64,000 bases of DNA. Origin: an uncultured Actinomycetes bacterium. Lineage in GTDB: Bacteria > Actinomycetota > Actinomycetes > Streptosporangiales > Streptosporangiaceae. Position 1 is the first letter of the stretch. Each line of letters begins with the position of its first letter. The DNA is taken from positions 1-64,000 of the forward strand of contig CAVWLF010000001.1 of NCBI GenBank assembly GCA_963755815.1, written 5' to 3'. The translations under genes were made by a program, and so were the position numbers. The notes beneath the pieces are model-generated. The model had not been told where the DNA came from. It ran no database searches and saw only the letters and a list, made by a program, of their open reading frames with translations. This document shows positions 38,253 to 53,443 of the stretch, piece after piece.

Positions 38253-38945
38253 TCAGCTGGCCTGCGGCCGGATGTCCTGCTTGATGGACAGCTTGCCGTC
38301 CCTCATCACCCCGACCCGCTGCGCCCGGCGCGCGATCGAGCTGTCATGAGTGATCAGGACCATGGTCAGCCCGAGTTCGCGCCAGAACTTCTCCAGCAGG
38401 GCGATGATCTCGTCTCTGGTGTCCTCGTCGAGGTTGCCGGTCGGCTCGTCGGCCAGCAGCACCTTGGGCTTCTTCACCAGCGCCCGGGCGATGGCAACGC
38501 GCTGCTGCTGGCCGCCGGACAGTTCCGAGGGCAGGTGCCGCAGCCGGTCGCCGAGCCCGAGATCGGTCAGCGCCTCGGCCGCCCGGGCCCGCCGCTGCGC
38601 GGCGGGCAGCCCGGCCGGCACCAGGGCCGCCTCCACGTTCTCCTGCGCGCTGAGCGTGGGTATCAGGTTGAACGTCTGGAAGACGAACCCGATCGACCTG
38701 GCTCGCACCGTCGTGACCTGGCTCTCACGGATGCTGGCTAGGTCCTGGCCGTCGAAGTCGACGAGGCCGGCCGTCGGCCGGTCCAGCCCGCCGAGTATCT
38801 GCAGCAGCGTGCTCTTACCGTGGCCGGTCGGGCCCTGGATGGAGAGCCACTCGCCGTCCTCGATGACCAGGTCGATCCCGCGCAGCGCGGCCACCGTGCC
38901 GCGGTCCTTCCGGTAGTCCTTGGTCACGCCAGTGAGCTTGTACAT
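38253..38945 (-). CDS. ABC transporter ATP-binding protein (MacB/LolD/FtsE-like)
   Basis: Walker [10 protein letters not shown], signature [15 protein letters not shown], Walker [13 protein letters not shown]. Start at [11 protein letters not shown] (ATG 38945). Confidence 0.9.
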
Positions 38946-39000
38946 CTGCTTCCCCTCGTCGAGGTCCGCGGAATCCGCCGCCGGGTCCGGCCGCTGCCCG

Positions 39001-40521
39001 TCACGCGACCCTGGCCAGCGCGTCCGCCGGGCGCAGCCGTGCTGCCCGCCAGCCGCCGAACGTCCCGGCGATGAGGCCGCCGGCCATGGCCAGGACCACG
39101 GCCAGCACGATGACATCGAGCGTTACCTGAGCGGTCAGGTGCACCGGCACGGTGTGGCTGGCATTCGCGGCGGCCCGCCGGAAGCCGCCGCCGAAGCCAC
39201 CGCCACCACCACCGAAACCGCCGCCGAAGCCGCCGCCACCGCCACCGCCGAACGTGCGCGCGCCGCCCGGCGTCGCGCTGCCGGTCGTCGGGCCGATCGA
39301 TGCCGACAGCGGCCCGGACAGCCGGGTTACCAGCGTGGCGCCGAGGAAGCCGAGCGCGACGCCGGCGATGCCGCCCGCCAGGCCGATCACGAGTGACTCG
39401 CCCATCACCTGGCTGACCACCCGCCGGCTCCGCCAGCCGAGCGCCTTCAGCGTGCCGAACTCCCTGACCCGGCGGGCAACCGCCGCCATCGTCAGCAGGC
39501 TGGCCAGCAGGAACGCGGCGGCGAGCACGGCGATGGAGAGCCAGCGGCCGAGGTTGCTGGCCAGGCTGGACGCGCTGGACAGCGAGCCGGTCACCTCGCT
39601 GGCCAGGTCGCTGGAGTTGGTCACGGTGGCCTTGGGCATGAGCCCGGAGATTTCCTGCGATACGGCGGTGATGTCCGACGCGCTGCTGGCGGCCACGTAG
39701 ACCGTGTTCACCTTGTTCTTCAGGCCGGCCAGGGCCTGCGCCCGGGCCAGCGGAATGTAGGTGTCCGCGGCACTGGCGCCGGCCGGCACGCCGACCACCC
39801 CGATCACCTTGAAGCTCTTCTTGGCGATCGTGATCGAGGAGCCGACCTTGAGCTTGGCCTGCTTGGCGTAGTCGGAATCCACCACGGCGACGTTCGAAGT
39901 CGCGTCGGCGGCGGTGAACGTCCGCCCGGCCGTGACCTTGCCCGAGCTGAGCGGGCCAAGCTCGCCCTGGGACAGGTCAACGCCGGAGACACTGAACGAG
40001 CTCGGGGTAAAAGCGCCGCGGAACCTTCCGCCTCCGCCACTTCCGCCTCCGCCACCACCGCCGCCGCCGAATCCGCCGCCGCCCCCGCCGCCGGCGTTGA
40101 TCGACGGGATCTTTCCGGTGATCTTGGTGTCGGTGAGGGTCAGCCCGCCCGCGGCGGCCGCGACGTCGTGCAGCCTGGAGACGGTCGTCACCGACGCCGA
40201 ACTCAGTGTCCCGAGCCCGAAGTTCCCCAGGGTGTCGATGTCAATCTTGGTGCCGGGCGCGGGCCGGGTCCGCGAGCCGGTTGTCCCCCGGAACCCGAAC
40301 GAGCGGGGCCCGCCGGCGCTGGCCGCCGGGGCCTGCGTGACGGTCACGTCCGTGCCCACCCCGTACAGCGAGTGCAGCACGGTGCCCTGCGCGGTCCGCA
40401 CCCCGGCCGACAGCGCCGCGACCGTGATGACCAGCCCGATCCCGACGGCCAGGCCGGACGCGATGAGAATGGCCTGGCGCATCCGGCGGCGTAGCTCGCG
40501 CCGCAGGTAGGTGAAGAACAA
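39001..40521 (-). CDS. ABC transporter permease, FtsX/MacB-type, with poly-Gly insertions
   Basis: N-terminal TM, a large extracytoplasmic domain, and a C-terminal FtsX 3-TM bundle (FGTLKALGWRSRRVVSQVMGESLVIGLAGG). Two long Gly/Phe runs (GGGGGGFGGGGGGGGGSGGGG and GGGGGGFGGGFGGGGGGFGGGF). Confidence 0.85.
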   Translation of the reverse strand: MFFTYLRRELRRRMRQAILIASGLAVGIGLVITVAALSAGVRTAQGTVLHSLYGVGTDVTVTQAPAASAGGPRSFGFRGTTGSRTRPAPGTKIDIDTLGNFGLGTLSSASVTTVSRLHDVAAAAGGLTLTDTKITGKIPSINAGGGGGGGFGGGGGGGGGSGGGGRFRGAFTPSSFSVSGVDLSQGELGPLSSGKVTAGRTFTAADATSNVAVVDSDYAKQAKLKVGSSITIAKKSFKVIGVVGVPAGASAADTYIPLARAQALAGLKNKVNTVYVAASSASDITAVSQEISGLMPKATVTNSSDLASEVTGSLSSASSLASNLGRWLSIAVLAAAFLLASLLTMAAVARRVREFGTLKALGWRSRRVVSQVMGESLVIGLAGGIAGVALGFLGATLVTRLSGPLSASIGPTTGSATPGGARTFGGGGGGGFGGGFGGGGGGFGGGFRRAAANASHTVPVHLTAQVTLDVIVLAVVLAMAGGLIAGTFGGWRAARLRPADALARVA

Positions 40522-40618
40522 AGGAACTCCTCAGGGTCGCGGGCGCCAGGGCCAGGACGGGGCGCCGGGACACGAGCCGGGCGGCGACGTCGCGGCCGGG
40601 CTTGCGCCAGGCGCGCAG

Positions 40619-42544
40619 TCAGGAACCTGAGGAGATCCTGGCCAGCGATTCTGAACGGACCCTGTAAGGAGTCTGCAAAATTACCGGGTTCCGGCGAGGG
40701 ACGCCGGGCCGGTATACCTTCACGCCGTCCGCGGTGTAGCCGAGCCGGAAGCCGGTCTCGTGCAGATAGCGGATGGCCGGCCGGGTCCGGCCATGCCATC
40801 TCCAGACCAGCACCCAGCCGATGTCCAGGTGGCGCGCGTCCAGCCGGGCCGCCGCCAGCTGCGCCGGGGTGACCTGCTGGCCGTGCTGGACGGCCACCAG
40901 CTCGGCGAAGAAGGCATGCTTCCTGGCCGCGGCCAGGGTGGGACCGGGTATCCGGGACAGGAAGCCCACCGCGCGCGGGTGCCCGTCGGCGGTCGCCAGT
41001 ACCTGCGCCTCCGGGTCGAACCGGCCTCCGTAGACCGGGGCTCCGCCGCGGAGGCCGTACGGGACGTCGACGACGAGTGACCCGGAATGGTCGGCGGCGA
41101 TCGGCCGGTCGACGGCGGGCAGCGAGGTCGGCATGGAACCGATGCGGGGATTGCCGGACCAGCCGGCTTCCAGCATTCCGAGCGCCAGCACGACGACGAT
41201 GGCGGGGGCTGCGTGGTAGCGCAGCCAGTTCACCGCCGCGCCGGCCAGCAGGGCGGCGGGCACCATGCCCAGCATCAGGATCCGGGCCGGCTCCCGGAAG
41301 CCGGACAGCCCGGGGATGCGGACGAACCAGGTGTACGGCATCACCGCGGACACCCGCACCCCGTCCAGGGTGGTGGCGTCGGGAACGTAGACGTGCGGGC
41401 CGATCCGCAGCACCGGACCTAGGGCCAGCGCGGCGCAGCCGAGGCACAGCAGCGCCAGCAGCCATGCGCTGCGCCGCCGCCAGGCGGCCAGCAGCCCGAG
41501 CAGGGCGAGCAGGCTCAGCACCAGGCCGTAGGTGGGAACCCCGTCGATGAGCCGGCCAGAATAGATGAGCCCGGCGGGGACGTGCAGCCTGAGCTCGGTC
41601 ACCCGCGGGGAAAGCTCGAACATGCCGGGGAGCGGGACCGAGTAGGCCAGGTAGGAGGTGCCCAGGTCACCCGCCGGGGTGGTGGCGCCGCCGGATCTGG
41701 TCTGCTGGGCGATGGCGATGAGCTGCGGGCTGGCGACCAGCAAGGTCACCAGCCCGGCCAGCGCGGCCGGCCACAGCTTCGCCACCACCGGACGCCGCAC
41801 CAGCCACGGCACCAGCGCCGCGCACGCCAAGATGACCACCAGCACGGCCATCTCCTGATCAGTCAGCAGCGCCCCGCCGGCCACCACCCCCAGGACCACC
41901 GCCCGCCGCCACCCCGGCCGCCGCGTCAGCCGCACCGCGGCCTCCAGCGCCAGCGGCAAGAACAACGCCCCCGCGGCCAGGTTCAGGTGATACCAGGACC
42001 GCCACGTCAGCATCGACGACAACCCGAAAAACGCCCCCGCCGCGATCGCGCCCACCTGCGAGGGCAGCCACAACCGCGCCACCCGGTACATCGCATAACA
42101 CAGCAACCCCGGCATCACCACCGACAGCAGGTTGTACGACGCACTCGGCCCGAACACCACCGTCACCGGCATCATCACCACGCCCGGCAGCGGCATCAGC
42201 GCATGCAACCCCAGCTGAGCCCCCGCCGGAGCATCGATATAACGGGTAAACCACGGATTACCCAGATGCTCCACCTGCCGCGCAACCCACCAGAACCCCC
42301 ACACGTAACTACCCGCATCACGCGTCGCCGGCAACCGGCCCGCCAGATACGTCACCCGCGGCCAGCTCACCGCCATCCCCGCCGCCACAAACCCAGCCAG
42401 CACCCCCAGCTGAACCGCCACCGGACCACGAACCACCCGGAAAACCCGCCACCACCCGAACCCGCCCGGCCCGGGACCACCCGCCGCAACGCCCGGCAGC
42501 CTCCGGCCCGGCTCCGGCCCCGACCGGAGCCCTGACCGCCGCAT
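40619..42544 (-). CDS. large polytopic membrane protein, putative GT-C-type glycosyltransferase (uncharacterised family), copy 1
   Basis: 641 aa with more than 10 hydrophobic helices. An Asp-containing first loop follows TM1 (LPATRDAGSYVWGFWW). A soluble C-terminal domain of about 200 aa. The GT-C function is inferred from architecture and neighbours only. Confidence 0.7.
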   Translation of the reverse strand: MRRSGLRSGPEPGRRLPGVAAGGPGPGGFGWWRVFRVVRGPVAVQLGVLAGFVAAGMAVSWPRVTYLAGRLPATRDAGSYVWGFWWVARQVEHLGNPWFTRYIDAPAGAQLGLHALMPLPGVVMMPVTVVFGPSASYNLLSVVMPGLLCYAMYRVARLWLPSQVGAIAAGAFFGLSSMLTWRSWYHLNLAAGALFLPLALEAAVRLTRRPGWRRAVVLGVVAGGALLTDQEMAVLVVILACAALVPWLVRRPVVAKLWPAALAGLVTLLVASPQLIAIAQQTRSGGATTPAGDLGTSYLAYSVPLPGMFELSPRVTELRLHVPAGLIYSGRLIDGVPTYGLVLSLLALLGLLAAWRRRSAWLLALLCLGCAALALGPVLRIGPHVYVPDATTLDGVRVSAVMPYTWFVRIPGLSGFREPARILMLGMVPAALLAGAAVNWLRYHAAPAIVVVLALGMLEAGWSGNPRIGSMPTSLPAVDRPIAADHSGSLVVDVPYGLRGGAPVYGGRFDPEAQVLATADGHPRAVGFLSRIPGPTLAAARKHAFFAELVAVQHGQQVTPAQLAAARLDARHLDIGWVLVWRWHGRTRPAIRYLHETGFRLGYTADGVKVYRPGVPRRNPVILQTPYRVRSESLARISSGS

Positions 42545-44700
42545 CCACGCCGGCCGCCACGGTCGAGCCGGCCCGGTCAGCGGCCGTCTCCGGTCCCGCC
42601 TCGCGGGAATCGATCACGCTCTGATCGGCCGCTTTCATCGCCGGGCAGCGCCGCCCGCGCGGTATACCCGCACGCCGCCCGCGCGGTATACCTTCACGCC
42701 GCCCGCACGGTGTACCTTCACGCCGTCCGGCCGGTATACCTTCACGCCGTCCGCGATGTAGCCGAGCCGGAAGCCGGTCTCGTGCAGATAGCGGATGGCC
42801 GGCCGGGTCCGGCCGTGCCATCTCCAGACCAGCACCCAGCCGATGTCCAGGTGGCGCGCGTCCAGCCGGGCGGCCGCCAGCTGCGCCGGGGTGATCTGCT
42901 GGCCGTGCTGGACGGCCACCAGCTCGGCGAAGAAGGCGTGCTTCCTGGCCGCGGCTACGGTCGGGGCCGGTACCCGGGACAGGAAGCCCACCGCGCGCGG
43001 ATGCCCGTCGGCAGTCGCCAGCACCTGCGCCTCCGGATCGAACTGGTCACCGTAGGCGCCAGTTCCGCCCCGGAGGCCGTACGGGATATCAACCACGAGT
43101 GACCCGGAATGGTCCGCGGCGATCGGCCGGTCGATGGCCGGCGGCTGGTGGCGATGGACCCAATGCCAGGATTGCCGGACCAGCCGGCTTCCAGCATTCC
43201 GAGCGCCAGTACGACGACGATGGCGGGGGCTGCGTGGTAGCGCAGCCAGTTCACCGCCGCGCCGGCCAGCAGGGCGGCGGGCACCATGCCCAGCATCAGG
43301 ATCCGGGCCGGCTCCCGGAAGCCGGACAGCCCGGGGATGCGGACGAACCAGGTGTACGGCATCACCGCGGACACCCGCACGCCGTCCAGGGTGGTGGCGT
43401 CCGGGACGAAGATATGGTTGCCGACCCGGATTACGGGGCCAAGGGCCATGACCGCGCAGCCGAGCCAGAGCAGTGCCAGCAGCCACGCGCTGCGCCGCCG
43501 CCAGGCGGCCAGCAGGCCAGCCACCGCCAGGACGCTCAGCACCAGGCCGTAGGTGGGGATCCCGTCGCCGATCCGGCCGCCGTAGATGAACCCCGGCGGG
43601 CCGTGCAGCCCGAACGCGGTCACTCGCGGGGAGAGCTCGAACATCCGGGGGAAGATGACGTCGTTCCCGAGATACGACCCGCCGAGGACGAGCTTCGGGA
43701 TAGTGGCGCCGCCGGATCTGGTCTGCTGGGCGATGGCGATGAGCTGCGGGCTGGCGACCAGCAAGGTCACCAGCCCGGCCAGCGCGGCCGGCCACAGCTT
43801 CGCCACCACCGGACGCCGCACCAGCCACGGCACCAGCGCCGCGCACGCCAAGATGACCACCAGCACGGCCATCTCCTGATCAGTCAGCAGCGCCCCGCCG
43901 GCCACCACCCCCAGGACCACCGCCCGCCGCCACCCCGGCCGCCGCGTCAGCCGCACCGCGGCCTCCAGCGCCAGCGGCAAGAACAACGCCCCCGCGGCCA
44001 GGTTCAGGTGATACCAGGACCGCCACGTCAGCATCGACGACAACCCGAAAAACGCCCCCGCCGCGATCGCGCCCACCTGCGAGGGCAGCCACAACCGCGC
44101 CACCCGGTACATCGCATAACACAGCAACCCCGGCATCACCACCGACAGCAGGTTGTACGACGCACTCGGCCCGAACACCACCGTCACCGGCATCATCACC
44201 ACGCCCGGCAGCGGCATCAGCGCATGCAACCCCAGCTGAGCCCCCGCCGGAGCATCGATATAACGGGTAAACCACGGATTACCCAGATGCTCCACCTGCC
44301 GCGCAACCCACCAGAACCCCCACACGTAACTACCCGCATCACGCGTCGCCGGCAACCGGCCCGCCAGATACGTCACCCGCGGCCAGCTCACCGCCATCCC
44401 CGCCGCCACAAACCCAGCCAGCACCCCCAGCTGAACCGCCACCGGACCACGAACCACCCGGAAAACCCGCCACCACCCGAACCCGCCCGGCCCGCCACCC
44501 CGCGGCCCGGCATCCGGCCCCCCGACCGGAGCCCTGACCGCCGCACCCACGCCGGGCGGCCGCACCTCAGCCGGCCGCACACCGGCCGGCGTTACCGGCG
44601 AGCTAGCCGCCGGACCCGGCCCGCTCAGTGCGGCCGGCCCGGGACCACCCGCCGCCACGGCCGAGCCGGCCCGGTCAATGGTCTGTGCCGGGCCGGAGGC
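40721..44700. repeat. about 2.02-kb tandem duplication (two gene-length units)
   Basis: Offset is 2021-2022 bp. The ORF track shows identical translated runs of 262 aa and identical 131-aa ORFs (41859-42254 = 43880-44275). This gives an identical block 41687-42472 = 43708-44493, flanked by visibly diverged sequence. Confidence 0.9.
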
Positions 44701-44736
44701 CAGCGGCCCCTGCCGGTCACTGTCCGCCCGGTCCAT
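42635..44736 (-). pseudogene. tandem paralog (copy 2) of the polytopic membrane protein, interrupted by a 1-nt deletion near 43150
   Basis: ORF 42955-44736 matches the N-terminal two-thirds of copy 1. The C-terminal domain (PPAIDRPIAADHSGSLVVDIPYGLRGG...) continues in another frame (ORF 42635-43846). Copy 1 has 30 nt (ATGCCGACCTCGCTGCCCGCCGTCGACCGG) where copy 2 has 29. Confidence 0.65.
42659..42754. repeat. 4 x 24-bp tandem repeat at the 3' end of copy 2
   Basis: Units start at 42659, 42683, 42707 and 42731 ((G/A/C)CGGT(A/G)TACC(C/T)(G/T)CACGCCG(C/T)CCG(C/G)). They encode (D/G)GV(K/R)V(Y/H)R(P/A) octapeptides. Copy 1 has a single unit (40709-40732). Confidence 0.85.
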
Positions 44737-44769
44737 CCGTTCCCTCGCTTAGCTCGTCGCGTGCGCGGC

Positions 44770-45801
44770 TTACAGTCGTCCTTCGCTAACGGCCTGCTCA
44801 ATCCACGGAATGACCTCGTCGAGCATCTCGTCGAGCGTGGTGGTGGCCCGGTAGCCGAGCACCCGCCGGGCCTTCTCGACGTCAGGAACCCGCCGTTGCA
44901 CGTCGTGCTCGTACGGCTGCTCAGCCACGAAGCGGAACGGCACATCCGGGCCCTTGACCTTGCGCCAGATGAGCCCGGCCAGGTCGAGCACGGTCGTCGA
45001 CTCCGCGGTCGACAGGTTGAAGTCCTCATTGACCGTGCCCGGGTGCAGCAGCGTGGCGACGATCCCGCGGGCCAGGTCACCGCCGTAGGTGTAGTGCCGG
45101 ATCTGGTCGCCCTGACCGAGGATGCGCAGCGGATCCTGGCCCTTGAGCACCTTCTGCACGAGATCGGGAACGACATGCGACATGGCCAGCCGGACGTTTC
45201 CGGACAGCACCTCGGCCTGGCCAAGCGCCCGTCCCTCGCCGATGCCAACGCAGTTGAACGGGCGCACGATCGTGTACGGCAGCTGGTACTGGTCCCACGC
45301 GGCGCGGGCGAAGTACTCCACGGCGAGCTTCTGGAAGCCGTACGAGGAGCGCGGCGGCGGGATCCGCCGCTCGTCCCCCTCCCGGGACGGCCAGTTGTCC
45401 GTGCTCTCGTACACCATGGAGGAGCTGACATAAGTCATCTTTTGCAGCGTGCCGGATTTATGCGCCCGCAGCGCCGCGTCGCAACTCGACGCGATGATCC
45501 GCTCGTTAGTGGCGAGCAGATCGTAGGCATAGGCGTGAAAGTAGCTAATTCCTCCGATCATCGCGGCTCCGGCGATGAAGTGATCGCACCCTTCCAGTAG
45601 CTCGGCCAGCAAGCCGGCCTCAGCGGCGTCGCCTTCAACAAAATGGTGGTTCGGGTGGTCATCGAAACTATGCTTCACCGGCCCGTACTTGGAGAAGTTG
45701 TCGACCCCGACCACGGTGTGGCCCTGATCGAGCAACTCCTGAACCACGTAGCCGCCGATGAAGCCAGCCGAGCCGGTGACAAGAACCTTCGCCACGAACA
45801 C
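44770..45801 (-). CDS. NAD-dependent epimerase/dehydratase (extended SDR; UDP-sugar modifying)
   Basis: Rossmann motif VTGSAGFIGG, catalytic YGFQK (YxxxK), 343 aa. Confidence 0.9.
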   Translation of the reverse strand: MFVAKVLVTGSAGFIGGYVVQELLDQGHTVVGVDNFSKYGPVKHSFDDHPNHHFVEGDAAEAGLLAELLEGCDHFIAGAAMIGGISYFHAYAYDLLATNERIIASSCDAALRAHKSGTLQKMTYVSSSMVYESTDNWPSREGDERRIPPPRSSYGFQKLAVEYFARAAWDQYQLPYTIVRPFNCVGIGEGRALGQAEVLSGNVRLAMSHVVPDLVQKVLKGQDPLRILGQGDQIRHYTYGGDLARGIVATLLHPGTVNEDFNLSTAESTTVLDLAGLIWRKVKGPDVPFRFVAEQPYEHDVQRRVPDVEKARRVLGYRATTTLDEMLDEVIPWIEQAVSEGRL

Positions 45802-45852
45802 TCCTTCGTCGCAGTACTCGTATCTGGTCTCAGTACTCGCATGTAGGTCAGT

Positions 45853-46605
45853 TCAGCGCGGTGCCGCGGCATCGCTTTCCCGGCGCGCGGTCAGTTTCTC
45901 CAGGGTCAGCCGCGGGCCGAAGGCGAAGCGATACCAGTGCAGGTAGCCAGGCAGCCATTGCACCAAGTCGAAGCGGGACTCCCCGAACGAGCGATCCAGC
46001 CAGATGGTCGGGATCTCGGCGACCGGGCGTCCCAGCCTGGTGGCCTTCGCGGTGAGCTCGAGGCCGATCTCGAATCCGGCTCGCGAGTCAATTCCTACCT
46101 GCCGCACGAACTCGGTCGAGTAGGCCTTGAAGCTATTGGTGGCGTCCCTCGTGCCGACCCGGGCGAGCAGCCGCAGTGACTTGCCCGCCGATCTGGACAG
46201 CAGGCGCTTGAGCTTCGGGCCGCCAACCTGCTGGCCGCCCGGCATATACCGGGATGCGGCGGCGACCGCAACCCCCCGTTCCACTAGCCGGGCCAGGTCG
46301 TCGATCTGCCGCGGGTCGTCGCTGCCATCCGCCATCGTCACCACGGTGACCGGCGACCGCGCCTCGTCGAAGCCGGCCCGGATGGCGTTCGCGGGACCGG
46401 GACCGTAGCCATTGAGCACGCCGCGCACGCGCGCGTCCGCGCTGGCCACCTTCTCGATGTAGGGGACCGTGGTGTCGTCTGGCCGGTCGTAGACGACGAG
46501 TACCTCACACGGCGACGTCACCGCGGCCAGCACCCGGTCCAGGCACGGGCGAATGGCCTCGCCCTCGTTGTAGACCGGAATCACCACAGTGATCTCGGGA
46601 CTCAT
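45853..46605 (-). CDS. family 2 glycosyltransferase, polyprenyl-phosphate sugar synthase-like (DPM1/ArnC-like)
   Basis: ITVVIPVYNEGEAI, the DxD-type MADGSDDP, and a size of about 250 aa without TM segments. The ATG overlaps the dehydrogenase stop (ATGA). Confidence 0.88.
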   Translation of the reverse strand: MSPEITVVIPVYNEGEAIRPCLDRVLAAVTSPCEVLVVYDRPDDTTVPYIEKVASADARVRGVLNGYGPGPANAIRAGFDEARSPVTVVTMADGSDDPRQIDDLARLVERGVAVAAASRYMPGGQQVGGPKLKRLLSRSAGKSLRLLARVGTRDATNSFKAYSTEFVRQVGIDSRAGFEIGLELTAKATRLGRPVAEIPTIWLDRSFGESRFDLVQWLPGYLHWYRFAFGPRLTLEKLTARRESDAAAPR

Positions 46606-47816
46606 ACCCGCATGCCTCTTCCGGTCACGCCCCACAGGTCCGCGACCGGCTTGTCGGTGACCAGGTCGCGATATTCCGGATGAGGTGCGGCAACGATCAG
46701 CAGGTCGGCGCGCTCAAGCACCTCGGCCAGCGATGTGAACCGCTTATCGGTGATGTAGGGGTCCGAGCACAGGACCTCGTTCGCCTTGAGAATCAGAATT
46801 TTACGGAGCTTATAGGACAAACTCTCCCGCGAGTCATCGCTGCCGGCCTTGAAGCCCATTCCCAGGACCCCGACGGTGAGTGCGGCGAGATCGTAGCGGG
46901 TCTCCAGCCGGGAGACGAGGTAGAGCGGGAGACCCTCATTGATCAGCATTGCCGAGTGGCCGAGCACGAATTTGTTCTGGTTGAATGCCGCGAGCTGCAT
47001 CGTGTCCTTGAGCAGGCACGGGCCGGCCGCGAAGCCCGGCCCCGGCATATCGGCGGCCCGCGGATAGTCGTGCCGGATGGCCCAGCGTATCCGCTCAAAA
47101 TCTAGCCCGTAGTCATTCGCCATCATCCAGAACTGATTGGCCGTCGCGAATTTGATGTACCGCCAGGTGTTGGTGAAAAGCTTAGCGAGCTCGGCTTCCT
47201 CGGGTTGCAGCCGGACGACCTCATTAGTCAGGATGCGGAAGAACTTTTCCGCCCGGTCGCCAGCACGGTCAGTGCGGGCACCGACGATTTGCGGCAGGTC
47301 GAACAGCTCCTCCATGGCATGTCCCTCGGCGATGCGCTCGGGGCAGAAAGCTATATCCACGTCGATGCCGCGTTTGCTGAGCATGCGCTCGGTCAATGCG
47401 GTGACCGTCGGGTGAATGGTGCTGCGCAGAATGACGAGCTGGCCGTCGACCAGATATTCGGCGCACCGGTCCAGGGCGGCCGGCACCGCGCCCAGGTCCG
47501 GGTTGAGATGCTCGTCAACCGGGGTCCCGACGACGACAACGAGGATCTCGGCGGTACCGACCACCGCCGGGTCGGTCGTGGCCGTGAGCCTGCCTGCGCA
47601 CACGGCCGCGCGCAGCGGCTCCTCGGCACCTTCCTCGGTGAACGGCATGCGCGCATTGCTGACAATTTCTACCGCAGCCGCGTTGAGGTCATATAGGCGC
47701 ACCGATAGGCCGCGCGAAGCCAAGGCCACGCCAAAGGGGAGGCCGACGCGCCCGCAGCCGCCAATGATCGCCACATCGGCCGAGAAGGATGGGGGGGCCT
47801 GCTTGTCCGTTGGCAT
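46602..47816 (-). CDS. nucleotide-sugar dehydrogenase (UDP-glucose/GDP-mannose dehydrogenase family)
   Basis: N-terminal VAIIGGCGRVGLPFG Rossmann motif and a catalytic Cys context GFAAGPCLLKD. Start at MPTDKQ (ATG 47816). Confidence 0.9.
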   Translation of the reverse strand: MPTDKQAPPSFSADVAIIGGCGRVGLPFGVALASRGLSVRLYDLNAAAVEIVSNARMPFTEEGAEEPLRAAVCAGRLTATTDPAVVGTAEILVVVVGTPVDEHLNPDLGAVPAALDRCAEYLVDGQLVILRSTIHPTVTALTERMLSKRGIDVDIAFCPERIAEGHAMEELFDLPQIVGARTDRAGDRAEKFFRILTNEVVRLQPEEAELAKLFTNTWRYIKFATANQFWMMANDYGLDFERIRWAIRHDYPRAADMPGPGFAAGPCLLKDTMQLAAFNQNKFVLGHSAMLINEGLPLYLVSRLETRYDLAALTVGVLGMGFKAGSDDSRESLSYKLRKILILKANEVLCSDPYITDKRFTSLAEVLERADLLIVAAPHPEYRDLVTDKPVADLWGVTGRGMRV

Positions 47817-47850
47817 GCTGTTCCTCGTCCGTTGGCATGCTGTTACTCGT
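47807..47850. repeat. 2 x 22-bp tandem duplication spanning the dehydrogenase start codon
   Basis: CCGTTGGCATGCTGTT(C/A)CTCGT at 47807-47828 and 47829-47850, 21/22 identical. Each copy carries a CAT (ATG on the minus strand). Confidence 0.75.
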
Positions 47851-48067
47851 TCGGGCGCAGACATAACGTCATCCGGCGGCTAGTTAAACTGCTGCGGAAA
47901 ACTACCGCAGCAGTCCCGCACCGCCTCGATGGTCCGCAGGCACCGGATTTCCCCGATTCCTTCCGAAGCCGAAGTGTACCTACCGGCGGCGTAACGTAAA
48001 AATCCATTACTTTACCGAGATCTGCACTTGGGGCGCACTTGACGTACGTCAATATTCCAGTGGTGAT

Positions 48068-48709
48068 CTATTTACCCAGGCCGGGAGGCGGCGGGCAATG
48101 CTTTGCCAATAGCACCGGCGCCGAATCCGCCGGCCGGCCCGGAAGCGGCCCGCCGACCCGGTAGCGGCGGCCGTCGAGCGCCGAGCACCCCGACCAGCAG
48201 GTAGCTCGCCGTGGTGGCGAGCGCCGTGACGATGGCAAACGATCGTGCGTCCTGGCCGTACCAGCTGATCTCCGGCAGCGCGGCGAAGAAACCAGCCCGG
48301 CGAAGAGCCCGGCCCGCGGCGACACCAGCCGCCGCCCGATCGCCGCCACCCCGGCCGCCGCCGCGGCCATCGCCAGCGCCGACGGCAGCCGGGTGGTGAA
48401 CTCGCTGCTGCCGCCAAGCCGCACCACGACCCAGATGATCATGTAGTAGGCGCCGTGCACGGCGTCAGTGTGGCCCAGTATCCGGATCAGGGCGCCGAAC
48501 GGGCGGCGCACCGCCGCCAGGGTGGCGCCCTCATCCCGCCAGTACGACGGGGTAGTGATCCGCCAGAGCATCAGCGTGAGCGTGGCCGCCGGCGGGACGG
48601 CCCGCATCCAGAGCGGGCCGCCGGCGGCCTGATCCGGCGGCCGCCGGGCCGCTCCGGCCGTCTCCCCGGCTGGCCTGTCCAGGACGGCAGGCCGGCCAGC
48701 TGACGACAT
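48068..48709 (-). pseudogene. truncated, frameshifted N-terminal fragment of a GT-C mannosyltransferase-like (PMT_2/GT39-like) gene
   Basis: The first ~135 aa (TPSYWRDEGATLAAVRRPFGALIRILGHTDAVHGAYYMIIWVVVRLGGSSEFTTRLPSALAMAAAAAGVAAIGRRL) match the conserved start of actinobacterial membrane mannosyltransferases. Sensible sequence then continues in another frame (FFAALPEISWYGQDARSFAIVTALATTASYLLVGVLG) and stops after about 200 aa in total. Confidence 0.6.
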
Positions 48710-48796: not shown

Positions 48797-49801
48797 TCAG
48801 GCTCCGCGCATGGCCCGGATTGATTCCCGCAGTGACCCCATCGTGGCGAGCACGGCGGACGGCTCGTACCCGCAATGGGCCATGCAGTTGGAGCACCGCT
48901 CGTCCTTGCCGCGGCCGTAGGCGTCCCAGTCGGTGGTCTCGATGAGCTCCTTGTACGTCTTCACGTAGCCGTCGGCCATCAGGTAGCACGGCTTCTGCCA
49001 GCCCAGCAGGGAGTACGACGGGATGCCCCAGGCGGTGCAGCCGAAGTCGGTCTTGCCCTCCAGGAAGTCCAGGAACATCGGCGAGTGATTCAGCCGCCAG
49101 CGCTTCCGGTTGCCGTTGTCGAACGCCTTGCGGAACAGCTCCCTGGTCTCGGTCACGCCGAGGAAGTGCTCCTGGTCCGGTGCCTTCTCGTAGGCGTAGG
49201 CCGGCGAGATCATCATGTCGCTGACCTTGAGGTCGTCGTTGAGGTAGTCGAGCACGTCGATGACGGTCTGCGGGGTGTCGGTGTTGAAGACCGTCGTGTT
49301 CGTGGTGACCCGGAAGCCGCGGCGCTGGGCTTCCCTGATCGCCGCGACCGCCTCGTCGAAGACACCGTCCTTGCAGACCGATGCGTCGTGCCGCTCGGCC
49401 AGGCCGTCAATGTGCACGGTCCAGGCGAAGTACCGGGACGGCGTGAACTTGTCGATGTGCTTGGGCAGCAGCAGCGCGTTAGTGCACAGGTAGACGTACT
49501 TCTTGCGCTTGACCAGTTCTTCCACCAGCACGTGGATCTGCGGGTGCATCAGCGGCTCACCGCCGGCCAGGGAGACCATCGGCGCGCCGCATTCCTCGAT
49601 CGCCGCCAGCGCCTGCTCCACCGGCATCCGCTGCTTCAGCAGGCTGGCCGGCTGCTGGATCTTGCCGCAGCCGGCGCACTTCAGGTTGCACGCGAACAGC
49701 GGCTCCAGCTCAACGATCAGCGGGAACTTCTCCCGCCGGGCGAGCTTCTGGCGGGCTAGGTACGCCCCGACCCGGATGCTCTGGCGCATGGGGATACTCA
49801 T
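48797..49801 (-). CDS. hpnH: adenosylhopane synthase, radical SAM (HpnH)
   Basis: 334 aa. Radical-SAM cluster motif [11 protein letters not shown], and HpnH-typical N-terminus [31 protein letters not shown]. Located in the hopanoid operon. Confidence 0.92.
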
Positions 49802-51303
49802 GTTTGCCTTACCTCCTTGGGCAGGCCGAACCGGATGTTCTCAGTAGCGACGACGCGCTCGCTCACCTCGACCGGGCCGAGGCCGCCGAGCGCGGCGATA
49901 ATCTCGTCGACGACGGACGGCGGCGCCGAGGCGCCGGCCGTGAGCCCGATCGTCGACACTCCAGCCAGCCAGCCGAGCTCGATGTCCTCAGGGCCATCGA
50001 TCAGGTAAGCGGGCCTGCCAGCCCGCTCCGCCGTCTCCACCAGGCGGCGCGAGTTGGAAGAGTTGGCCGACCCGGCCACGAGCACCAGGTCGGATTCGGC
50101 GGCCACGGCACGGACCGAGAGCTGCCGGTTGGTGGTGGCGTAGCAGATGTCGTCGCTGCCGGGCCCGCGGGCGGCCGGGAACCGTTCGAGCAACTCCCCG
50201 ACGAGCCCGCCGGCCTCGTCGGCCGACAGCGTGGTCTGCATCAGGTAAGCCACCTTGCCGGGATCCTCGGGGCGCAGGCCGGCCACGTCGGCCTCGTTTT
50301 CGACCAGGACAGTTGAACCGGGCGCCTCGCCCAGCGTGCCCTCGACTTCCTCGTGGCCGGCGTGCCCGATGAGCGCGACCAGATAGCCGTCGGCGGCGAA
50401 CCGGCGGGCCTCCACATGCACCTTGGACACCAGCGGGCAGGTGGCATCGACGGTTTCCAGCCCGCGCCGGGCCGCCTCGTCCCGCACCGCCGGCGACACG
50501 CCGTGCGCGGAGAACACCGTCACGGCACCGTCCGGAACCTCGCTCAGCTCGTCCACGAAGATCGCGCCGCGGCGCTCCAGGCCCGCCACCACATGGGTGT
50601 TGTGCACGATCTGCTTACGCACGTAGACCGGCGGACCGTGCTGATCAAGCGCCCGCTCGACGATCTCGATCGCCCGCTCGACCCCGGCGCAGAAGGACCG
50701 CGGCCCGGCCAGCACCACCCGCCGCCGCCCGGCCGCGGCCGCCCAGCTGGCGAGCGCGGGCGCGGCCAGCCGCAGGGAGCGCAGCGCCGCGACCCCGCCG
50801 GCCAGGCCCGCCGGGCTCAGCAGCGGCCGCTGCGGCGTATCCGATACGGCCCGGAGCACGATCGCGGGCCGGTCGGCGGCCGCCGCGAGCAGCTGCGCCG
50901 ATTCCATATCGGCCACCAGCGCGCCGGTGCGCGCGAGCCGCTCCCGCTCGGCGCCGTGCACCAGGTGATCGACGGTGACGATCTGGCCGGCCCGGGCGTT
51001 CAGCCCGGCCCGCCGCAGCTCGCCCGCCAGCAGCGGGGCCGACGGGCAGCTGATGGCTGCCGCCCCGGAGCCACTGACCTGCGTGCCAACGACGAGGTCG
51101 CCGGGCGACAGGTCGCCGGAGAGGCCGCCGCCGGTTCCGGCGATGGCCAGCATCCCAAACGAGCCCGGGCGGAGCTTCGCCGCCGCCGAGGCCGATTTCA
51201 CCGGCCCGTAGCCGGTCTGCCTGACCTCGGCGCCGGAGCCGATGCCGCGCCGCACGGCGCGCGCTTCCAGCCGGAGCGGCGAGCAGACGAGCAGCCGGTT
51301 CAT
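49798..51303 (-). CDS. ispH: fusion protein: N-terminal nucleoside phosphorylase-like domain (HpnG-like) + C-terminal 4-hydroxy-3-methylbut-2-enyl diphosphate reductase (IspH/LytB)
   Basis: Residues ~1-190 look like the PNP_UDP_1 family ([14 protein letters not shown]...[10 protein letters not shown]...LRAVSD). Residues ~200-500 carry IspH motifs ([45 protein letters not shown]). Start at MNRLLVC (ATG 51303). The stop overlaps the hpnH start. Confidence 0.85.
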
Positions 51304-51385
51304 CGCATTCCTCCGCTCGGCCCGGCGGGCGCGCCGGGGGCCCGCCCGCCCGCGATTAGCCCGCCCGCGGTCAGCGACGGCCGGC

Positions 51386-53443
51386 TCATCCCGCACCGGC
51401 CAGGTAGCGGCCCAGCGCGCTGACCGGGAAGACCAGGCGGTACAGGTGGTAATTGATGTAGAAGTCACCCGGGAACCCGGTGCCGGTGTACTGCGGCTCG
51501 TCCCAGGTACCGTCCGGGCGCTGATGACTGGCCAGCCAGCGGACGCCGCGCTCTACGCAGGCCGCGTCATCCGCGCTGTCCCCGTCCCCGCTGGCCCCGT
51601 CCCCGTTGTTCCCGGCGCGGCCGGCCGCGCCGTGGCTGCTGCCGGTCTCGCCGTGGCCGGGTCCGGCGGCCGTGGAGCCCTGGCTCGCGGCCAGCAGCGC
51701 GAGCAGCGCCCATGCCGTCTGCGACGCCGTCGACTCGCCGCGCCCGGCCAGGCCCGGGTCGTCATAGGACCGCAGGTCCTCGCCCCAGCCGCCGTCCGGA
51801 TTCTGGTGCTCCCGGAGCCAGGCCACGGCCCGCCTGATCGGCGGCTTGCCGGGCAGCACGCCCGCGGCGATCAGCGCGGGCACCACCGCGCCGGTACCGT
51901 ACACGTAGTTCGCTCCCCACCGGCCGAACCAGGACCCGTCGTCCTCCTGCGCCCGCAGCAGCCAGGCCACGCCGCGGCGCACCGCCTTGCTGCCCGCCAG
52001 GCCCGCCGCGGCAAGCGCCTCGATGGTGTGCGCCGTGACATCCGCGGACGGCGGGTCGATCACCTCGCCGAAGTCGCAGAACGGCAGCTTGGCCACGATC
52101 TTCCTGGTGTTGTCCGCGTCGAAGGCGCCCCAGCCCCCGTCCCGGGACTGCATGCCGGTCAGCCAGCGGAGGCCGCGCGCCGTGGCCGCGGCCGACCGCG
52201 GCTCGGCGGCCGGGTCGACCCGCCGGAGCGCGAGCACCACCTCGGCGGTGTCGTCGATGTCCGGGTAGCCGTCGTTGTCGAACTCGAAGGCCCAGCCACC
52301 CGGGCTGAGCCCGGGCCGGCGGGCCTGCCAGTCACCCGGCCCGCGGATCTCCTCGCCGGCCACCCAGCGGGCCGCTGACGCCAGCGCCGGATGGTCGGCC
52401 GGAAGGCCGGCGTCGGAAAGCGCGATCATCGCCAGCACGGTGTCCCAGACCGGCGACTGGCATGCCTCCAGCCGCCTGGTCGGGCCGTCCGGCCCGTCGG
52501 CCCAGATGGTGAACCGGTCCAGCCCGGCCAGGCCGCGCTTGATCACCGGATGCTCCAGGCCGTAGCCCAGCAGGTGCAGCGCGATCAGCGAGTACACCCA
52601 GGGCGGCTGAATCCCGCCCCAGCAGCCATCGGCCTCCTGCCGGGCGATGATCCACTCCGCGCAGCGCCGCAGGGCCGCGGTCCGGACCGCGCGCATCGGG
52701 CGGGTTTGCTCGCCATGCCGGTGGTAGGCGTGCAGCACGCGGTCAAGCCCGCCGAAGAAGGCCGGCCAGCCCGGCCGCGGCAGGCCCCCGGCGCGGGCCG
52801 CGGCCGGCCCGGGGCCCGGATCAGGCGCGGCCGGCCACAGCTCGGGCAGCGCAAAGGGCAGCGAGCGGACGGGGCGCAGCGATCCGACAATGGTCAGCGG
52901 GACGATCGTCTGCCTGGCCCAGCAGGCCCAGTCCTGCACGTTCAGCGGGAACCAGCCGGGCAGGTAGATCATCTCCGGCGGCATCACCGGGAGCTCGTCC
53001 CAGGACCACTCGCCGAAGAGGGCCAGCCAGATCCTGGTGAACACGCGGGTGGCGGGAATGCCCCCGGCCGCGCGGATCCAGCCCGCCGCCCGCGCCATGT
53101 GCGCGGCGTCCGGCGAGTCGCCGGCCAGCCGCAGCGCGACGTAGGCCTCGACGGTGGTGGAGAGGTCAGCGTCGCCCTGGTAGTAGTTCGCCCAGGTCCC
53201 GTCCGCTCGCTGCCGGGACCTGATCCACCGCGCCGCGGCCGCCGTCTCCGGCTCCGCCCGGATGCCGAGGAACTCGCGGAGGAGCAGGTCCTCCGCATCC
53301 ATGGTGACGTTGGTCTCCAGCTCGCCCTGCCACCAGCCGCCGGGGTGCTGCAGGTCAAGCAGATGACGGGCGGCCAGGTCCAGCGCCGTCCGCGCGACCT
53401 CGGGCGCCGCCTGCCCGCCGGGGCGTGCCTGCGTCACCGTCAT
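51386..53443 (-). CDS. shc: squalene-hopene cyclase
   Basis: 685 aa. Catalytic DxDDTA context ([15 protein letters not shown]) and repeated QW motifs ([57 protein letters not shown]). Confidence 0.95.

Follow-up and report, generated by a model that had tools for sequence, protein, structure and literature searches.

Does the gene block that adjoins the hopanoid operon in a 64,000-nucleotide stretch of DNA from an uncultured Actinomycetes bacterium (contig CAVWLF010000001.1; the whole stretch is called the window below) form one system with that operon, or did its parts come to lie there separately? The block (38253-48709, minus strand) contains genes for a nucleoside diphosphate (NDP)-sugar dehydrogenase, a family 2 glycosyltransferase (GT2), an extended short-chain dehydrogenase/reductase (SDR), two tandem polytopic membrane proteins, and an FtsX/MacB-type permease with its ATP-binding cassette (ABC) ATPase, as well as a decayed PMT_2-type glycosyltransferase gene. 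All of these had been listed in an original prediction made from the sequence alone; Pfam and NCBIfam recovered each of them on the minus strand, in a run that, as had also been stated, faces one way and directly adjoins hpnH, the gene that closes the hopanoid operon. The prediction joined them into a lipid-linked sugar pathway coupled to the exporter and, conceivably, to a hopanoid-rich envelope layer. We consider it likely, short of certain, that the block is instead a nested-insertion locus of three apparently functionally separable layers, in which the dehydrogenase, GT2, SDR and polytopic genes make up a self-contained lipid-linked-sugar cassette and not a part of one integrated hopanoid-envelope system.

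The genes of the block were called with Pfam and NCBIfam, homologue lengths and Shine-Dalgarno sites served to refine the start codons, and all coordinates are window positions unless a locus is named. For comparison, we retrieved 73 genome loci through one of the polytopic proteins, shown below to have the glycosyltransferase C (GT-C) fold, and mapped the window proteins onto them. A further 80 metagenome loci (L082-L161) were retrieved through the FtsX permease and were combined with three assembly contexts; 55 of these loci extended far enough upstream to be informative. The comparison genomes are without exception uncultured metagenome-assembled genomes (MAGs) from one actinobacterial group. 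The window has a G+C content of ~70%, and its nearest relatives are uncultured 'Streptosporangiaceae'/Actinomycetes MAGs.

We identified the cassette, with the gene order [dehydrogenase]-GT2-SDR-GT-C, in 15 of the 73 genome loci and in at least six metagenome or assembly contigs (among them L079, L081 and L083-L085). Twelve of the 15 genome loci contain neither an hpn gene nor FtsX/ABC genes within 10 kb (these include L003-L007, L011, L014, L016, L021, L040 and L057), and L059 is too short to tell. In L003, L006 and L021, the flanks of which are annotated, the cassette has AAA_10/TcpE/NlpC_P60 genes on one side and ANTAR/glutaredoxin/UvrD/WhiB genes on the other. Among the genome loci, hpn genes were found beside the cassette only in the two closest ones, L001 and L056, and FtsX/ABC genes only in L056, there being none within 10 kb downstream of the cassette in L001; L079 and L081, contigs that reach far enough upstream, are hpn-adjacent as well. 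Synteny of the cassette with shc/hpnH is thus not conserved across the related genomes. Outside the closest clade the cassette occupies another chromosomal context that is free of hpn genes, which speaks against the proposed shared function with the hopanoid operon. Because the block recurs in unrelated contexts and its 5' region travels along, the cassette behaves as an autonomous, mobile-looking unit that moved with its own regulatory region. Two complete cassettes stand in tandem in L014 (6787-17041). In L074 (12478-15057, minus strand) and L075 (minus strand), where the cassette is in its other chromosomal context, a second GT2 gene lies beside it, paired with the gene for a 608-aa protein without a Pfam match, and the two may be another donor/transferase pair.

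The 5' region that accompanies the cassette (47817-48016, minus strand) begins with a -10-like box, GGTAAAGT, at 48016-48009, followed by a leader of ~190 nt with a hairpin at 47889-47913. Alignment across loci shows a -10-like GGTAAnGT box and a leader of 90-200 nt ahead of whichever cassette gene comes first, in all contexts and also in dehydrogenase-less loci (e.g., L003:6548-6731, L011:7474-7666 and L081:2558-2636), and an nhmmer profile of the region matched nothing else in ~2 Mb of related loci. The counterparts of the hairpin in other loci differ in sequence and, judged by eye, still form a hairpin. The leader had no match in Rfam, either at the gathering threshold or at E ≤ 1, covariation was weak (RNAalifold term about 0), and the single-sequence fold gave z = -1.8. 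The 5' region could be a new cis-regulatory leader, and these values neither show nor exclude a structured RNA. All promoter assignments made here are readings of sequence patterns. Just upstream of the -10-like box there is a perfect 14-bp palindrome, TTGACGTACGTCAA (48039-48052), which none of the other cassette loci examined has in the corresponding position.

Comparison of the loci retrieved through the permease shows a different pattern for the transporter. An hpnH gene lies upstream of FtsX/ABC in 50 of the 55 informative loci: directly upstream in 28 (FtsX identity to the window protein 62-69%), with a PMT_2 gene in between in 13 (66-73%), with the cassette in between in eight (76-98%), and across a 2.7-kb gap in one (64%); the remaining five have no hpn gene upstream of FtsX (62-66%). 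It is the FtsX/ABC pair, rather than the cassette, that is persistently linked to hpnH. The synteny comparison of the block with the hpn genes that had been suggested as a check therefore came out divided, the transporter being syntenic in relatives and the cassette not. Moreover, FtsX/ABC follows hpnH with or without the cassette, and the cassette occurs without FtsX/ABC, so that the predicted coupling of the cassette to a MacB-like exporter, and through it to hopanoids, is not supported; an insertion made cassette and exporter neighbours. A conserved element ~130-170 nt before the FtsX start (40632-40686 in the window, minus strand), aligned across loci and containing repeated (T/G)CAG motifs, is retained in all three architectures and possibly serves the FtsX/ABC unit as promoter or operator. 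The insertions reach to this element on the right, and hpnH (adenosyl-hopene transferase; 48797-49801, minus strand; TIGR03470, 529.9 bits vs. a cut-off of 225) bounds the insertion site on the left.

The permease (39001-40521, minus strand; 506 aa) matches MacB_PCD (55.2 bits) and FtsX (48.1 bits), both above the Pfam cut-offs, and the ATPase (38253-38945, minus strand) matches ABC_tran (121.7 bits, 4e-35), so that the pair has the composition of a MacB-type (type VII) ABC system, an FtsX plus MacB_PCD permease with its cognate ATPase. The permease begins with a TTG codon preceded by GAGGAG, in agreement with full-length 506-aa homologues that are 98% identical; its nearest solved relatives are MacB (5lil, 5e-7) and LolF. 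For the ATPase, of the MacB/LolD/FtsE type, the ATG at 38945, preceded by GAGGGGA, gives a protein of 230 aa, the length at which homologues are called, and not of 287 aa. Its best NCBIfam matches, YbbA, LolD, MacB and FtsE, are all below the equivalog cut-offs. Both the extracytoplasmic domain and a later loop of the permease are interrupted by a long Gly-rich insert of low complexity, of the GGGGGGGFGGGG... type.

These distributions show in what order the layers arrived, the most parsimonious history being hpnH-FtsX-ABC, then PMT_2, then the cassette. In this history the oldest layer is the FtsX permease and its ATPase directly downstream of hpnH. A PMT_2-type GT-C gene, seen in this position in an intermediate clade, then entered between hpnH and FtsX and was later reduced to a remnant in the window. 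The youngest layer, the cassette with its own 5' region, came in fairly recently and in the closest clade only, with PMT_2 on one side and the FtsX upstream element on the other. The remnant (48068-48709, minus strand; mannosyltransferase-like, Pfam PMT_2 5.5e-6) had been described as a decayed fragment, and the decay is real: compared with L081, a 97% identical sister contig with an intact 580-aa gene, the window gene lacks 1,121 nt and has one extra indel, i.e., an internal 1.1-kb deletion plus a frameshift. An NCBIfam model of MT1671-like mannosyltransferases matches only the N-terminal part of the remnant, and it scores the 580-aa protein of L081 at 146.9 bits against a cut-off of 900, which makes this protein a distant relative. 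Three PMT_2-type genes lie between hpnH and FtsX in L121 (4487-9155). Tandem amplification readily affects the hpnH/FtsX junction and the genes concerned (cassettes in L014, PMT_2-type genes in L121).

Within the cassette, three genes point to the making of a sugar donor. The dehydrogenase (46602-47816, minus strand; 404 aa), an NDP-sugar 6-dehydrogenase, matches the subfamily-level model TIGR03026 with 252 bits (cut-off 189.8), and its nearest solved relatives are the UDP-N-acetylmannosamine (UDP-ManNAc) dehydrogenases 4r16 and Cap5O, followed by UDP-glucose (UDP-Glc) dehydrogenases. Its start was placed at 47816 in line with homologues of 404 aa; 22 nt of the start region are directly duplicated (47801-47844), which puts an additional ATG, out of frame, 22 nt ahead of the real one. 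The GT2 (45853-46605, minus strand; 250 aa; Pfam Glycos_transf_2, 2.5e-20), the start of which overlaps the dehydrogenase stop (ATGA), has as nearest solved relatives the dolichyl-phosphate mannose synthase (DPMS) of Pyrococcus (5mlz, 7.7e-15), ArnC and GtrB, is far below the cut-off of all NCBIfam equivalogs and has no C-terminal transmembrane (TM) segment. The SDR (44770-45795, minus strand; 341 aa; Pfam Epimerase, 5e-41), which resembles nucleotide-sugar epimerases and decarboxylases, starts with a GTG preceded by GAAGGAG. The closest solved relatives of the SDR are 8vr2 (an unnamed epimerase/dehydratase), WbmF of Bordetella (2pzj), the UDP-glucuronic acid (UDP-GlcA) 4-epimerase of Bacillus (6zl6) and UDP-GlcA decarboxylase; because three of these four act on UDP-uronic acids, the SDR suits the dehydrogenase product as substrate. 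From these relationships we infer that the product is a polyprenyl-phosphate-linked uronic acid, its epimer, or a pentose derived from one. An assignment of the SDR as HpnA (TIGR03466, 41.8 bits vs. a cut-off of 367.65) and of the GT2 as HpnB (TIGR03469, 18.5 bits vs. 379.25) was rejected. The G+C content across the dehydrogenase-GT2-SDR stretch (44001-48000) is 0.65-0.67, compared to 0.72-0.75 in the flanks.

The enzyme that would use this donor is the product of the polytopic genes. Polytopic A (40619-42544, minus strand) is intact, its maximal open reading frame (ORF) of 641 aa running with the final ~25 codons into the FtsX upstream element. It has no Pfam or NCBIfam match above threshold, and a profile search of PDB sequences gave no match; weak Pfam matches to PMT_2 (PF13231) were found in 14 of 68 relatives (best 1.7e-6), and more distant members of the family have only sub-threshold matches to DUF6541, DUF2079 or PMT_2. 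We built an AlphaFold2 model from 68 homologues (pLDDT 77, pTM 0.81). It was fold comparison alone that placed the protein: the top 31 Foldseek matches of this model are all of the GT-C fold (probability 0.80-1.00, TM ~0.25-0.46), and the model has the N-terminal multi-helix membrane core of GT-C architecture together with a C-terminal alpha/beta domain at residues ~465-615. Directly after TM1 (helix 40-66), R74-D75 is invariant in 68 sequences of 61-84% identity, as are D228 and E230. An Arg-rich N-terminal tail would place R74-D75 on the extracytoplasmic side, with D75 as the candidate catalytic residue. The original prediction had proposed that 40619-42544 be examined for exactly this, a GT-C fold and an acidic residue in the first loop, and the predicted structure provides both. 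The family is of modest size (251 clusters at E ≤ 1e-30 and 1,735 at E ≤ 1e-10, among 1.84 billion representatives at 50% identity) and is multi-copy in the related MAGs, often as tandem pairs or triples without adjoining donor genes. Its derivation from the neighbouring PMT_2 gene was rejected (hhalign probability 1.3%), and so was an anti-phage defence role of the ABC, FtsX and GT-C genes, for which PADLOC gave only generic ABC-domain matches.

The second polytopic gene, copy B (42635-44736, minus strand), had been listed as standing in tandem with copy A and is a paralogue of it; this upstream copy is frameshifted, with a net -1 shift near 43147-43153 that divides it into ORFs at 42955-44736 and 42635-43846. 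The two copies are ~92% identical overall at the DNA level. Because a 799-nt block (42473-41675 vs. 44494-43696) is 99.7% identical, with two mismatches, and the remainder ~90%, recent gene conversion appears to have acted upon an older duplication. The frameshift lies in a non-homopolymer context and recurs in L081, a contig of 95-97% identity from an independent assembly. Between copy B and L081, the ratio of non-synonymous to synonymous substitution rates (dN/dS) is 0.13 ahead of the shift; beyond it, read in the shifted frame, the ratio is 0.32, with 11 synonymous and 10 non-synonymous changes. Wrong-frame controls lie at 1.3-1.9, and a contig of the Joint Genome Institute (L085) has two intact tandem GT-C copies. 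In the European Nucleotide Archive assemblies L078, L079 and L080, the shc, SDR and polyprenyl synthase genes are each split into two called genes; such frequent splits point to frequent single-base indel errors, so that single frameshifts here should not be read as pseudogenes unchecked. We did not accept copy B as a plain pseudogene, both of its halves being constrained and the related assemblies being rich in split genes; it may have become a pseudogene very recently, be a split gene or owe the shift to faulty assembly. The 3' end of copy B (42649-42768) has a tandem repeat with a unit of 24 nt, coding for octapeptides of the GVKVYRAG kind, in 4-5 copies vs. one in copy A.

Families, fold and conserved cassette support the part of the original prediction in which dehydrogenase, SDR and GT2 supply a lipid-linked donor to an uncharacterised family of extracytoplasmic GT-C enzymes. 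In such a pathway, the dehydrogenase would act in the cytoplasm on a UDP-hexose or UDP-N-acetylhexosamine, and its oxidation product, the uronic acid, would be epimerised or decarboxylated by the SDR. The DPM1/ArnC/GtrB-like GT2 would then move the sugar onto polyprenyl phosphate at the inner membrane face, and a separate flippase, none being encoded in the cassette, would turn the lipid-linked sugar outward. Finally, the GT-C enzyme, of which the window has two tandem paralogues, would pass the sugar to an extracytoplasmic acceptor, with wall glycopolymers, lipoglycans and proteins as candidates. That the GT-C enzyme uses a polyprenyl-phosphate sugar is supported by its conserved adjacency to a DPMS/ArnC/GtrB-like GT2. 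The pathway would operate independently of hopanoids.

How firmly can this nested-insertion reading be held against its rivals? Dehydrogenase, SDR, GT2, GT-C and MacB-type exporter might instead act as one system, co-expressed with the hopanoid operon, that glycosylates and/or exports a component of a hopanoid-rich envelope layer. Every gene does point the same way in one unbroken run with hpnH, the closest clade (L056/L078, L079 and L081-L087) retains the arrangement, GT-C genes of two unrelated families lie at exactly the hpnH/FtsX junction, and uronic-acid glycosides of bacteriohopanetetrol, for which we know of no enzymes, occur in nature. We nevertheless regard such a system as unlikely, given at least 12 other loci with the cassette and without hpn or FtsX/ABC genes (in unrelated flanks where annotated), the 28 loci in which FtsX/ABC follows hpnH and no GT gene is present, the absence of FtsX/ABC from the stretch downstream of the hpn-adjacent cassette of L001, the separate conserved upstream elements of the cassette and of FtsX, and the scores of SDR and GT2 far below the HpnA and HpnB cut-offs. 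A narrower proposal concerns the transporter, which in a monoderm could be a mechanotransmission system dedicated to hopanoids, extracting extended hopanoids or presenting them at the outer leaflet, with the inserted GT-C genes acting on its cargo or on the product layer. We know of no protein for such a role in monoderms. Other type VII ABC systems (LolCDE, DevCA) act on lipids or lipoproteins at the outer leaflet, and in 50 of the 55 informative loci, down to 62% permease identity, the pair follows hpnH. The literature searched on hopanoids with ABC, FtsX or MacB contained no report of the adjacency of hpnH and FtsX/ABC, and a recent survey of hopanoid microsynteny places its transport candidates in diderms only and mentions no ABC system in actinomycetes. 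However, a SpoIIE-type neighbour gene on the opposite strand is also conserved, hpnH and FtsX are 150-300 nt apart, and five loci have close FtsX/ABC homologues with no hpn gene upstream; because of the conserved SpoIIE-type neighbour and the separate upstream element of FtsX, inherited gene order within one family is an adequate explanation of the adjacency, and we consider a dedicated hopanoid transporter improbable. A decaying, non-functional cassette, a relic in the window genome like the PMT_2 remnant, is a view to which we give very little credence. The deleted and frameshifted PMT_2 gene, the frameshift of copy B in both the window and L081, and the out-of-frame ATG that the 22-nt duplication sets ahead of the dehydrogenase start would fit it; on the other side, dehydrogenase, GT2, SDR and GT-C copy A are intact and have coding-type G+C at third codon positions, copy B is under purifying selection on both sides of the shift, the single-base frameshifts may be assembly errors in view of the many split genes in related long-read assemblies, and L085 has two intact tandem copies.

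Several observations weigh against the nested-insertion reading itself or against its details. Because the comparison genomes all come from one actinobacterial group, shared synteny is in part shared ancestry. In a scan of 37-50 kb, promoter and terminator sites did not outnumber those of shuffled sequence, the cassette promoter has no conserved -35 region in the window's clade, and transcription may read through from hpnH into the cassette. The dehydrogenase scores best against UDP-ManNAc dehydrogenases at subfamily level only, and it has been lost from four loci that keep a remnant of its first codons, so that it is not obligatory. A flippase gene (GtrA, SMR or MATE type) is absent from the cassette in the window and in L074-L078. 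Finally, two unrelated GT-C families have gathered at the same hpnH/FtsX junction (up to three PMT_2 genes in L121, two GT-C genes in the window), and there is a small chance that this accumulation reflects function and not a permissive site. GT-C genes might then accumulate at the junction to glycosylate, via polyprenyl-phosphate sugars, extended hopanoids or a layer built by the transporter, FtsX/ABC being hopanoid-handling; we regard this as a long shot, which, if true, would provide a new route to hopanoid glycosides.

The layout of the remaining region completes the picture. The block had been described as tightly packed with several ATGA overlaps. One such overlap exists, at the dehydrogenase/GT2 junction, and the description is overstated because the other junctions are gaps of 33-250 nt. 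At the distal end, the next gene past the ATPase is GH15-like and convergent (plus strand), so that the co-oriented run stops at the ATPase. Upstream of hpnH lie an hpnG-like/ispH fusion, shc, a polyprenyl synthase gene and two SQS_PSY (squalene/phytoene-synthase-family) genes. The fusion (49798-51468, minus strand) is a single ORF of 556 aa in which residues ~63-215 form an HpnG-like phosphorylase/nucleosidase domain and residues ~244-555 a full IspH/LytB, and it was also called in the related contigs L078 and L080.

The nested-insertion reading has consequences beyond the window. Adjacency to a hopanoid operon can arise via nested insertion, which calls for caution in annotation by guilt of association. 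A GT-C family tied to a dedicated donor module offers a tractable entry to the envelope glycans of abundant uncultured soil actinobacteria, and the adjacency of hpnH and FtsX/ABC in a monoderm is a testable lead on how Gram-positive producers handle hopanoids.

Comparison with known systems places both the transporter and the cassette. The transporter resembles MacB, LolCDE and DevCA in combining an FtsX plus MacB_PCD permease with a separate ATPase that matches LolD, MacB, FtsE and DevA best. It differs from them in missing all equivalog and subfamily cut-offs, in having no adaptor or membrane-fusion gene, in the Gly-rich inserts of its permease, and in having hpnH, not a glycolipid or lipoprotein pathway, as its conserved neighbour. 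For the heterocyst-glycolipid exporter DevBCA in particular, the match to DevA was 188.6 bits vs. a cut-off of 295.8, and the fusion-protein gene is absent from the locus.

For the cassette, close parallels are the three-component glycosylation systems, which consist of a GtrB-type synthase, a flippase and a GT-C enzyme (e.g., Gtr of Shigella and Salmonella, and the GT136 pentofuranose systems; PMC11127046). Like these, the cassette has a GT2, with DPMS, ArnC and GtrB as its nearest solved relatives, beside an enzyme of the GT-C fold, which implies a lipid-monophosphate sugar donor outside the membrane. Unlike these, it has no flippase gene, adds a dehydrogenase and an SDR that would tailor the sugar, and contains a GT2 without C-terminal TM helices and a GT-C family without a curated model. 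The likeness to the Arn pathway for 4-amino-4-deoxy-L-arabinose (L-Ara4N), which comprises Ugd, ArnA, ArnB, ArnC, ArnD, ArnE/F and ArnT, is looser: the cassette has no aminotransferase, formyltransferase, deformylase or ArnE/F, and no match in the block reached the level of an Arn equivalog (ArnA, 39.6 bits vs. a cut-off of 777; ArnC, 40.8 vs. 529). AftD, AftA and AglB/STT3, GT-C enzymes of mycobacteria and archaea that have a soluble domain at the C-terminus, share only 10-16% sequence identity with polytopic A. In rhizobia, UDP-galacturonic acid (UDP-GalA) is made by UDP-Glc dehydrogenase and a 4-epimerase. The rhizobial RgtE is a bactoprenyl-phosphate GalA synthase, and RgtD/F are ArnT-like transferases (PMC7663294). 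The cassette follows the same logic as this RgtE/RgtA-D/F system, from dehydrogenase to an SDR acting on a UDP-uronic acid, to GT2, to GT-C; whereas the rhizobial genes are scattered and target the lipopolysaccharide of a diderm, those described here form one cassette in a monoderm actinobacterium. Because it has no flippase, no aminotransferase and no equivalog-level matches, the cassette is not a member of the three-component, rhizobial or Arn systems; as a glycosylation system of a known kind, it is new at the family level.

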